33,088 bases of DNA from a virus, in the IMG/VR virus record IMGVR_UViG_3300035666_000104. One strand, 5' to 3'. The translations under genes and the position numbers were made by a program. Below are positions 26,768-28,111 of the stretch, piece by piece. Positions within the stretch are counted from its first letter, which is position 1. Every line of letters begins with the position of its first letter. Under the pieces are notes generated by a model, which searched no databases, was not told the DNA's origin, and saw nothing but the letters and a program-made list of their open reading frames with translations.

Positions 26768-27040
26768 TTATAGTGAAACAACATGAAATATTTTTTTTCC
26801 AATCAGAATCATTTCTTGACCCATTGGTGTATCCAATGTTTGAATCTTTGGATTGATATACAGGTCACAAGAAACAGATATTGGATTGACTCCGATACCT
26901 GTCTTCTCACCATCCAATAAAAATTCTCGGAATGTATCTTTATTCACAAGATTGAAAAATAACTCTATATCCCAAATAACATAAATCTCTTGTTGATTAG
27001 GTAAAATAAAGGTTATTACTATTTCATATTTCCTGTCCAT
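26768..27040 (-). CDS. Hypothetical early protein (90 aa, start MDRKYEIV)
   Basis: The listed start at 27094 lies deep inside the GNAT gene. An internal ATG at 27040 gives a 17-nt overlap instead. Confidence 0.6.
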   Translation of the reverse strand: MDRKYEIVITFILPNQQEIYVIWDIELFFNLVNKDTFREFLLDGEKTGIGVNPISVSCDLYINPKIQTLDTPMGQEMILIGKKIFHVVSL

Positions 27041-27516
27041 TTTCTTCTTTTTTTGGAATGTATTCGAAGGTATAAGTTGTTCTATAACCTGCAAACCATC
27101 TTGTTTTAATCAAATCTTTTTCATAAGAATCCTTATTCTCTTTCTTGGATATAAAGGTCCAATTAGGATTTTTAGACCTTCTATAAATAAGAGATGGATG
27201 AGTTGTTGTACCTCTGAATCTTAATCCCTTATTGGTATAATATTTACCACAGAACTCAGATAGAATTGAACCAAGACCAAGTCCTTGAAATTGTGGAAGA
27301 ATAACCAATCTATGTTCCTTTCTCATATTCTTAACGGTAGGATGTGGGAAGTTCAAACACGCATTGAAACCACAAAGATGACCGTCAATGAACATAACGA
27401 ATTTTTCAGATGAGTTATTAATCCTATGACTTAGATAGTGATACTTTCCAAAAATATTCCAGAGTCCTTTATAAGTTGACTTATAGATTTCAATTCTGTG
27501 TTGGACTTTTTTTTTT
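27024..27516 (-). CDS. GNAT-family acetyltransferase domain, in the -1 frame relative to the ABC-ATPase ORF
   Basis: Motif A RLVILPQFQGLGLGS. The frame is open from the A10 tract, and the region upstream of the listed Met (VQHRIEIYKSTYKGLWNIFGKYHYLSHRINNSSEKFV) looks like coding sequence. Confidence 0.65.
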
Positions 27517-28111
27517 GAGGGATAACAAATTCCATTTTATTTGTATCGAATATCCAATCGGGATTCATAGATTCTACTATATCCTGATGGCAAGATATAC
27601 CAACAAATTTCTTTCCGAGTTTTCTAACCTTATTGGAGAATAATTCAGAACCATACTTTGCGGTAACACGGTCAACAACAGAAGTAAATTCATCATAAAC
27701 AATAAGGTCTTTATCCATCAATAAAGAATAACATAAATCTACTCTCATTTTCTCACCCATAGATAAAACTGAATATGGTTTCAACCAACTTGGTGGTGAA
27801 GAAAAACCAACTGATATGAGAGTTTGAATTATCTCATCAATAGTTTTATTCTTTGGGAAATCATCAATAACAGAGTTCTCAGAAAAAGACAAATCAGAAA
27901 CAATATCATCACCGAATAATTGTTTTGCGATTGTTGTTTTTCCTGTTCCTGAGTCACCGACAATGAGACCTACATTCCAATCGAAATCTAAGTCAATATC
28001 ACCGATAAAACTCTCAACGATTTTATCACCCTGTAAATCAAAATACTTGATAATCTGACCTACTCTCTCGGTCTTCTGATATTCGTGTTCTTTTACAATT
28101 TCAAATTTCAT
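27431..28111 (-). CDS. ABC-type ATPase (0-frame product, 226 aa)
   Basis: Walker A GDSGTGKTT, signature LSMGEKMR, Walker B LIVYDEFTS, H-loop SCHQD. Confidence 0.75.
   Translation of the reverse strand: MKFEIVKEHEYQKTERVGQIIKYFDLQGDKIVESFIGDIDLDFDWNVGLIVGDSGTGKTTIAKQLFGDDIVSDLSFSENSVIDDFPKNKTIDEIIQTLISVGFSSPPSWLKPYSVLSMGEKMRVDLCYSLLMDKDLIVYDEFTSVVDRVTAKYGSELFSNKVRKLGKKFVGISCHQDIVESMNPDWIFDTNKMEFVIPQKKKSNTELKSISQLIKDSGIFLESITI
27506..27517 (-). other. C-A10-G tract with the in-phase heptamer A AAA AAG: candidate -1 frameshift or slippage site
   Basis: The 0 frame reads CAA AAA AAA AAG. The -1 frame has a TAA stop 7 codons upstream and is then open to 27024. Confidence 0.6.

Follow-up and report, generated by a model that had tools for sequence, protein, structure and literature searches.

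Two overlapping reading frames at the locus

The 33,088-nucleotide stretch of DNA analysed here (IMG/VR record IMGVR_UViG_3300035666_000104, referred to below as the window) represents the genome, about 33 kb long, of a tailed phage in which nearly all genes lie on the minus strand. On this strand it contains an open reading frame (ORF) of 226 amino acids (aa) that encodes an ABC-type ATPase and is taken here as the 0 frame. It also contains, in the -1 frame, the sequence of a GNAT acetyltransferase that overlaps the end of the ATPase ORF. A run of ten A residues (A10) lies just ahead of this overlap, and it is the candidate recoding site with which this study is concerned. The features of the locus are listed in Table 1. 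Residues described as invariant, here and in the table, refer to an alignment of 46 family sequences (A1), which was also the basis for the AlphaFold model described below. The four ABC motifs of the ATPase ORF are intact and fall in invariant columns of this alignment.

Read in the ATPase frame, the tract is CAA AAA AAA AAG. Since the -1 frame is closed by the TAA at 27539..27537, the interval in which a change of frame could connect the two ORFs is limited to 27536..27506. Past that TAA the -1 frame remains open for 160 codons, up to the TGA at 27026..27024, and between the upstream stop and the Met codon at 27395 it contains no ATG, GTG or TTG. The conceptual fusion of the two frames is 362 aa long, with the junction ...FVIPQKKK-VQHRIEIYKSTY... 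and a junction peptide that contains VIPQKKKVQHRIE. A preliminary description of this DNA had reported the motif set GDSGTGKTT, LSMGEKMR, LIVYDEF and SCHQD in the 226-aa ORF, and a C-A10-G at 27507-27516 with A AAA AAG in phase. It had also given a TAA seven codons upstream in the -1 frame, about 160 open codons to 27024 and a fusion of about 362 aa. We located all of these in the sequence, the tract and its phase exactly as given. The same description had placed the 0-frame stop 27 codons after the tract, and this has to be corrected: the stop lies 24 codons past the AAG codon.

Runs of at least ten A or T occur three times in the window, compared to about 0.75 expected by our estimate from base composition. 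Such a run is thus not rare here by itself, and the significance of the tract comes from its conservation.

Table 1. Features of the locus and landmark genes of the window (A1, alignment of 46 family sequences).
Feature	Coordinates	Strand	Remarks
0-frame ORF, 226 aa	28111..27431	-	ABC-type ATPase domain (aa 1-~200), linker and 24-aa out-of-frame tail
Walker A / P-loop, GDSGTGKTT	27958..27932	-	G52, S54, G55, G57, K58 invariant in A1
ABC signature, LSMGEKMR	27766..27743	-	L116, S117, G119, M122, R123 invariant in A1
Walker B and catalytic Glu, DLIVYDEF	27709..27686	-	D140, E141 invariant in A1
H-loop / switch, SCHQD	27595..27581	-	C174, H175, D177 invariant in A1
Last -1-frame stop before the tract, TAA	27539..27537	-	7 codons ahead of KKK
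A10 homopolymer in the interdomain linker, candidate recoding site	27516..27507	-	C before, G after
Slippery heptamer A_AAA_AAG	27512..27506	-	in phase with the ATPase frame
-1-frame segment reached only through a shift, VQHRIEIYKSTYKGLWNIFGKYHYLSHRINNSSEKFV	27506..27396	-	fusion aa 203-239; GNAT strand 1 and first helices
Out-of-frame 24-aa tail of the 0-frame ORF, SNTELKSISQLIKDSGIFLESITI	27505..27434	-	
0-frame stop, TAA	27433..27431	-	formed within the -1-frame YHYL-S codons (CTA AGT)
Rest of GNAT, called as a 123-aa ORF, -1 frame	27395..27024	-	ends in TGA 27026..27024
Acetyl-CoA motif, QFQGLGLGS	27293..27267	-	in the -1-frame GNAT
Portal-like gene	31917..30706	-	PHROG profile match
Large terminase	19939..18800	-	
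Tape measure	7488..5194	-	

ATPase and GNAT as parts of one predicted protein

In a PHROG search, residues 5-357 of the conceptual fusion aligned in a single stretch with positions 3-354/357 of the family phrog_11143 (E = 1.8e-80), and neither ORF alone spans this profile. The preliminary description had suggested searches with hidden Markov models and a structure prediction on the fusion, and these gave a consistent picture. Pfam ABC_tran matched the ATPase half (E = 1.5e-7), Acetyltransf_1 matched residues 208-297, beginning five residues past the junction, and the structure was predicted as a confident two-domain model. Among 5.8 billion proteins searched there were 6,866 relatives. Most of those listed are contiguous, 350-365 aa long and carry both domains; contiguous homologues of about 355 aa with ABC_tran and Acetyltransf domains run to thousands, and members of the family also occur on more than 590 stretches in IMG/VR. 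The JGI name of the 226-aa protein (P0001) is “ABC-type ATPase with predicted acetyltransferase domain.” The ATPase/acetyltransferase fusion, which the preliminary description had named as an existing architecture, is therefore the norm in this family, as judged from phrog_11143, the contiguous homologues and the JGI name.

The AlphaFold model of the fusion (pLDDT 84.5, pTM 0.76) is continuous across the junction, and it contains a strand at residues 207-212 and helices at 217-221 and 229-233, all of them ahead of the Met (residue 240) at which the 123-aa ORF had been called to start. When the two halves were compared with folds in the PDB, the N-terminal half retrieved ABC nucleotide-binding domains. 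The C-terminal half retrieved complete GNATs (1y9k, 2ae6 and 4e2a; about 165 aligned columns, TM about 0.62 on the target). The GNAT fold, with its acetyl-CoA motif Q/R-x-x-G-x-G, is complete only when the -1-frame segment is included. Five residues that are invariant in the 46 sequences (W218, F221, H225, Y226 and L227) are encoded solely in the -1 frame, where they precede both the 0-frame stop and the first Met. In contiguous homologues the protein is uninterrupted in this region, an example being that of Pseudoalteromonas phage SL25 (...FIDVRGSLRRPKIEVKIRKAEQNEWELFKDFHYLSH). The contiguous homologues, the model and the fold matches together place the tract in the linker that connects the ATPase to strand 1 of the GNAT.

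The predicted strand and helices and the five invariant residues bear out two earlier suggestions, namely that the GNAT has its N-terminal part in the segment ahead of the listed Met and that the 123-aa ORF call is truncated. Homology and modelling thus indicate that the ATPase ORF and the downstream “GNAT ORF” probably belong to one gene of the phage ABC-ATPase-GNAT family.

Conservation of the tract in the window clade and in a contiguous sister clade

The exact 226-aa ORF is present on 32 contigs and is indexed in 85 blocks of the assembly collection (JGI, NCBI, ENA and Logan), from which 13 contigs were read. Among the 5.8 billion proteins there is no contiguous version closer than about 53% identity, from which we conclude that an A11 version of this phage has never been assembled. 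Seven distinct variants of the clade (L014, L020, L025, L026, L029, L030 and the window), which come from different samples and share 64-79% protein identity, all have exactly A10-G. They also have in common the phase of the tract, the -1 continuation KKKV[QRHS]H[RT][IV][ED]I...[YH]HYL and the position of the 0-frame stop. The flanks of the run vary, with CCCTC, CCTG or CCAG before it and TCC AAC, TCC GAC, TCT CTC and others after it, and the GNAT frame is unbroken throughout this divergence. IMG/VR was also scanned with a pattern anchored on A9, which would have caught A9, A10 and A11 alike; six window-type contigs were found, and all six have A10.

The contiguous clade nearest to that of the window also has A10. 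It accounts for 68 of the best 80 IMG/VR relatives (65 distinct ORFs), which encode an uninterrupted fusion with the linker ...EGQKKNRPxIKFEI.... The corresponding DNA, GAA GGG CAA AAA AAA AAT AGA CCA, has exactly A10 in the same phase relative to the ATPase frame as in the window. Here a -1 shift, or a transcript with one additional A, would read AAA AAA AAA TAG (or TAA) and meet a stop immediately in 66 of the 68 genes, so that the shifted product would be an ATPase-only protein ending in ...QKKK. The sister clade thus has the layout of Escherichia coli dnaX. In the window clade this arrangement is reversed, so that the short product is read without a shift and the long one is reached by the slip. 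The preliminary description had raised the question whether the heptamer is retained in related phages or the fusion is contiguous there; both occur, in different clades, and in both the tract is kept. A second IMG/VR pattern scan returned at least 120 sister-type contigs, and the matches listed comprised 115 with A10, four with A11, one with A12 and none with A9. For the two clades together, the run is ten in 121 of the 126 pattern matches listed.

We observed two further peculiarities of the sister-clade DNA. In L142, L155, L179 and L196 the run is A11, the ATPase ORF then ends in ...QKKK* and the GNAT is in the +1 frame, and the L162 contig breaks at an A12; these contigs reflect either genuine variation in the length of the tract or errors in the homopolymer. 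In 50 of the 68 contiguous-clade genes (L031-L110), GGG encodes the Gly that precedes the tract (GAA GGG CAA...), which is unexpected for genomes so rich in AT and may provide an AAGGG element resembling a Shine-Dalgarno (SD) sequence a few bases upstream of the slip site.

The codons of the tract were compared in 72 distinct coding sequences (CDSs) from the two A10 clades, with pairwise identities of 0.39-1.0 (median 0.67). At the three wobble positions in the tract, none of 216 codons ends in G. As a control we used columns of conserved Lys, Gln or Glu, and 10 of 10 such columns contain G-ending codons, in 4-29 sequences each. Elsewhere in these ORFs AAA makes up 85.5% of the Lys codons and CAA 86.3% of the Gln codons, values at which codon bias alone is insufficient to explain the invariant tract. 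In other contiguous clades (SL25, actinophages, L016, L047, L078 and others), the linker is rich in Arg and lacks a homopolymer, and the QKK(N/K) peptide is therefore not required by the protein. These comparisons indicate that the nucleotides of the tract are under selection.

Split loci in other lineages

All 26 split loci that we inspected change frame by -1 at the linker, and none by +1. On a crude neighbour-joining tree of the ATPase domain, calculated without support values, they occupy at least four places. The scan for related loci retains the best-scoring matches and is biased to contiguous genes, so it gives no true proportion of split genes; a separate scan of genome contigs returned six loci.

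One group of split loci forms a Firmicutes-type clade, which includes Streptococcus phages 315.4, phiNIH1.1, the Javan series and MismyG, Lactococcus P335 and Oenococcus phages. Contigs of metagenome-assembled genomes labelled Lachnospiraceae, Bacilli, Clostridia and Lactobacillus also belong to it. The conserved motif [PH]R[PS][EK]K.[FY].[IV][RK].C...EW..F..YHYL is here already in the -1 frame, which places the shift upstream of it, at an in-phase NNT TTT at the conserved Phe195 codon. Some members have canonical heptamers at this point, T_TTT_TTT in L111 and A_AAT_TTT in L113 and L116. A G/C-rich stem-loop starts 5-6 nucleotides (nt) downstream in 8 of the 10 Firmicutes-type sequences that were folded, with stabilities of -14 to -41 kcal/mol and z scores of -2.4 to -5.4 against dinucleotide shuffles, 0-2 of 200 of which match its stability. 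The 5' arm of the stem-loop is fixed (CCCCCAC, GCCCAC, GCCCGCGUC or GCCCCGCGG), and the 3' arm pairs with it from three different registers, a covariation that one would expect of a structure under selection. The geometry is the classical one for a stimulator of -1 frameshifting. A different candidate, the streptococcal site GC[A/G] AAA AAG (L003-L005), was rejected: it is missing in L006 and P335, and the [PH]R[PS][EK]K motif lies upstream of it.

Two other split loci have A-rich tracts. Enterococcus phage 9184 (L007) has GCA AAA AAG, i.e., A_AAA_AAG, at the linker, and L115, which was binned as Alistipes, carries a further A10-G whose phase differs. The 0-frame stop is at one common position in all split loci except L115, in which the stop is outside the region examined.

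Several side observations concern these loci. The 0-frame stop at the common position is made by the -1-frame codons for the L of YHYL and the next residue (TTG A, TTA A or CTA A), and the +1 frame of the contiguous A10 clade stops at the corresponding place, after 26 codons. In phage 9184 (locus 3139-3969), “DNA polymerase” is the annotation given to the GNAT part in the -1 frame. The module of this phage lies between DNA polymerase and deoxyguanosine kinase genes and has no ParB partner (see below), whereas in the other Firmicutes phages it lies just upstream of the terminase. In the homologue from Tenacibaculum phage pT24 (L012, LC168164.1), annotated as two “ABC transporter ATP-binding” CDSs, an in-frame stop at about 3240-3250 lies inside the GNAT (...WNGVPV*INVISPL...); it could reflect readthrough, an error or decay. 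Javan420 (L005) has a second frame change at about 3267-3270, at about residue 261 of the GNAT, which suggests that this copy is decayed or contains a sequence error.

Predicted function and the ParB partner

As summarized in a passage of PMC7824862 that cites NAR 2013 41:7635, Iyer et al. predicted that the phage ABC-ATPase-GNAT system acylates a DNA base. The pT24 phage named in PMC7824862 carries a homologue of the window gene. In tblastn searches with eight ParB partners, a ParB-like gene ends exactly at the start of the ATPase gene in 100 of 117 loci. Phage ParB homologues activate DNA thymine dioxygenases (PMC13229309), which makes a role in ParB-assisted DNA modification plausible for the family. 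Sequence searches of NCBIfam, PADLOC and the PDB returned generic ABC similarity only. In SL25 (L008, MF370965.1, 1838-3881) the ParB-like gene and the contiguous ABC-GNAT gene lie within 2 kb that has no annotated CDS.

Proposed expression by recoding and alternative explanations

We propose, with a probability of about 0.8, that the ATPase and the GNAT are encoded by one gene, which would be expressed by programmed -1 recoding at the A10 of the linker. By standard decoding this gene would yield the 226-aa ATPase-only protein with its 24-residue out-of-frame tail, and a fraction of expression events would enter the -1 frame at the tract and yield the 362-aa ATPase-GNAT fusion. The frame could change by either of two routes: the ribosome might slip back by one base on A_AAA_AAG, or RNA polymerase might add one extra A in copying the run. 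A -1 slip and an insertion of one A in the mRNA encode the identical 362-aa protein, and we consider the ribosomal and the transcriptional route about equally likely. The G-ending heptamer in the shift-dependent clade favours a ribosomal contribution, and the hairpin-assisted sites in the Firmicutes relatives likewise argue for a ribosomal component. The retention of all ten A's, and not merely of seven, favours a transcriptional contribution. RNA polymerase, too, slips on runs of at least nine A's, as in Thermus dnaX (cited in PMC3711429); the tract in the window exceeds the length of about nine, and its length is conserved beyond the need of the heptamer. As to the ribosome, A_AAA_AAG ranks with the most efficient -1 motifs of E. 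coli (PMC4066793), and with the dnaX 10-mer alone, 14-16% of frameshifting was obtained in vitro (bioRxiv 10.1101/2025.10.02.679949). We infer that both products arise and that a set ratio between them is required, plausibly in mixed ATPase dimers.

Several findings weigh against this proposal. The window tract has no significant RNA structure (z = +1.13 and +0.41 in single-sequence folding), and RNAalifold on seven relatives gave -7.45 kcal/mol with only one covarying pair. A long-range AGTCC...GGACT pairing, with apparent covariation in L029, was dismissed on these results, there being only one compensatory pair in the consensus and single-sequence folds being no better than shuffles. Inspection by eye of the 20 nt upstream (GGAATTTGTTATCCCTC) revealed no SD-like element. 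With no stimulator near the tract, the efficiency of recoding would have to rest on the run alone. In the 25-codon overlap of the A10-G clade, the variable columns number 13, 6 and 13 by codon position, and the amino acid identity amounts to 0.71 for the -1 frame vs. 0.67 for the 0 frame. The -1 frame is thus not clearly favoured, and with so unclear a substitution pattern the argument about the frame rests on homology to the contiguous relatives. The sister-clade assemblies are not perfectly stable either, and the four A11 contigs and the one broken at the run indicate that slippage at the level of DNA or of assembly does occur. Finally, the tblastn searches found no ParB partner in the window or in any A10-G relative; the window module is in this respect atypical and could be heading to decay.

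Other explanations of the locus have to be weighed against recoding. The preliminary description had offered two, recoding to a short ATPase and a fusion, or a miscounted homopolymer in a genome that truly has A11 and encodes a plain contiguous fusion; comparison favours the former, and we regard the latter as excluded, its probability being exceedingly remote. Homopolymer length errors are common in some sequencing chemistries, and a few sister-clade contigs show A11 or, in one case, break at the run. However, A10 and its frame are equal in independent JGI, ENA, NCBI and Logan assemblies and recur in the seven diverged variants, the protein database holds no contiguous near-identical protein, and assemblers consistently call A10, in frame, in 115 sister-clade contigs. 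If, on the other hand, the count is right and the locus consists of two genes or of a decaying one, the ATPase would act alone, and the 123-aa fragment would be translated independently from Met 27395 (or by reinitiation after the TAA at 27433..27431) or would be a dead remnant. Gene callers do annotate two ORFs in the window and in all split relatives, some members look decayed (the second break of Javan420 and the in-frame stop of pT24), and the window clade lacks the ParB partner. We nevertheless consider this very unlikely. The 123-aa product would be without GNAT strand 1, the first helices and the five invariant residues, yet these elements are conserved in the -1 frame of all seven variants, a frame with no ATG, GTG or TTG from the upstream stop to that region. 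The GNAT frame is intact over 64-79% divergence, and decay would neither keep an exact A10 with invariant wobble positions nor give -1 in 26 of 26 loci and +1 in none.

Phase variation at the DNA level would make recoding unimportant: the A10 would be a hot spot at which replication slippage toggles the gene between a GNAT-off (A10-G) and a GNAT-on (A11) state. Homopolymer tracts switch phase-variable DNA methyltransferases, and runs of this length are prone to insertions and deletions. The A11 found in 4 of the at least 120 sister-clade contigs, among the matches listed, and the contig that breaks at the run would fit such switching. The family is moreover predicted to modify DNA (PMC7824862), an activity of the enzyme class best known for phase variation. 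Runs of A7/U7 are depleted from E. coli genes in all frames, for which the authors cite transcriptional slippage or indels (PMC4066793). A switching locus should show both states, but the window clade is always “off” (in seven variants, six IMG/VR contigs and the exact ORF as indexed in 85 blocks), and no “on” protein is found in the protein database. In the sister clade the ratio of A10:A11:A9 is 115:4:0 among the matches listed, the immediate -1 stop in 66 of 68 genes fits a designed second product, and the short T-runs with stem-loops in the Firmicutes relatives do not phase-vary. We therefore hold phase variation to be very unlikely.

Relation to known recoding systems

The window gene resembles E. 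coli dnaX (tau/gamma) in its identical in-phase A_AAA_AAG heptamer and in the arrangement of one gene for two proteins with a common N-terminal ATPase and a differing C-terminal domain. The contiguous sister clade copies the dnaX geometry itself, with a long 0 frame and a slip that meets a stop directly. The differences are that in the window the polarity is inverted, with the slip making the long product; that a downstream stem-loop or, by eye, an SD-like element was not found; that the run is A10, compared to A6 in dnaX; and that the protein is unrelated to clamp-loader subunits. The earlier designation of the site as dnaX-type thus holds for the heptamer and fails for the stimulators and the polarity.

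Transcriptional slippage on A9/T9-type runs occurs in Thermus thermophilus dnaX, insertion sequence (IS) elements and Shigella mxiE. With these the window gene shares a linker homopolymer of at least nine, two frames read from one DNA and conservation of the whole run, but the T-runs and stem-loops of its Firmicutes relatives point to the ribosome and not to the polymerase. In the phage tail chaperone genes G/GT, a conserved -1 frameshift gives a short and a C-terminally extended protein in a set ratio, with sequences that have diverged. The present case is similar in being a phage gene with a conserved -1 shift that would give a short and an extended protein; it differs in gene, function and genomic position. 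Furthermore, the G/GT shift is near-universal in its family, whereas here contiguous, dnaX-like and inverted layouts coexist. Within phrog_11143, the conceptual product matches the profile from end to end, has all ATPase and acetyl-CoA motifs and is predicted to have the two-domain fold, but the window gene needs a change of frame for the fusion and has no adjacent ParB-like gene.

Neither the architecture nor the heptamer nor either of the two recoding mechanisms is new in itself. The novelty appears to lie in the recoding of this family of genes, in its breadth, and in the presence side by side of three layouts and at least three signals. In the literature searched (the Atkins 2016 review, the GeneTack survey, PRFect and a 2025 preprint) we came across no account of recoding for the ABC-ATPase-GNAT family, although absence there is not proof. 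To our knowledge, programmed frameshifting and slippage in phages are well documented in only a few gene classes, and the present family would add an apparently unreported and abundant one, with hundreds of metagenomic contigs.

It is tempting to speculate, although we would put the chances somewhat below even, that the whole ParB-linked ABC-ATPase-GNAT family needs the ATPase-only protein and the fusion at a fixed ratio, and attains it by at least three unrelated signals with both polarities. These signals may be the A10 with the long product in frame, the A10 with the short product in frame, and the T-run heptamers with stem-loops in streptococcal, lactococcal and oenococcal prophages. One possibility is that the fixed ratio serves an asymmetric ABC dimer bearing a single acyltransferase on DNA. 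If this speculation is true, the family would be among the most widespread cases of recoding in tailed phages after the tail-chaperone frameshift, and the first case known in a DNA-modification enzyme.

The presence of three layouts, and of both homopolymer and heptamer-plus-hairpin signals, in one family offers a natural experiment on why a ratio of two products is selected. There are also practical consequences. Gene callers split or truncate the gene, and in Streptococcus pyogenes 315.4 and phiNIH1.1, Lactococcus P335 and Oenococcus phages it is mis-annotated as an “ABC transporter” and a hypothetical protein; annotation pipelines should join both ORFs. Correct expression and assay of the predicted DNA-modifying enzyme require knowledge of the fusion product as well as of the ATPase-only form.

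Genome context and minor observations

No close DNA relatives of the window were found among GenBank phages, and the immediate neighbours of the ATPase gene have no match to PHROG families. The suggestions that the gene is third in an early operon and a candidate for host takeover are consequently without support. A portal-like gene lies just upstream, and published comparative genomics (PMC7824862) favours a system for DNA-base acylation instead.

A Thr/Pro-rich repeat was noted at the end of a 159-aa minus-strand ORF (28758-29237), which has no PHROG match. The other long homopolymers of the window lie away from the ATPase gene. A T10 on the coding strand (18292-18301) reads ATT TTT TTT TTG, with an in-phase T_TTT_TTG, inside an unbroken 258-aa ORF (18818..18042, minus strand) just downstream of the large terminase; the frame of this ORF, which has no PHROG match, is intact and there is no break to bridge. 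An A11 on the plus strand (T11 coding) at 26518-26528 lies between the minus-strand ORFs 26741..26535 and 26500..26219, and may be the U-tract of a terminator or a plain AT-rich spacer. Two ORFs that are far apart in the window match separate parts of one portal profile, phrog_33693: the 403-aa ORF (30706-31917) covers positions 20-333 of the profile, and residues 77-218 of a 542-aa ORF (3527-5155) match positions 395-537. The remainder of the 542-aa ORF also matches protease-like and methyltransferase-like families, which is an odd organisation.

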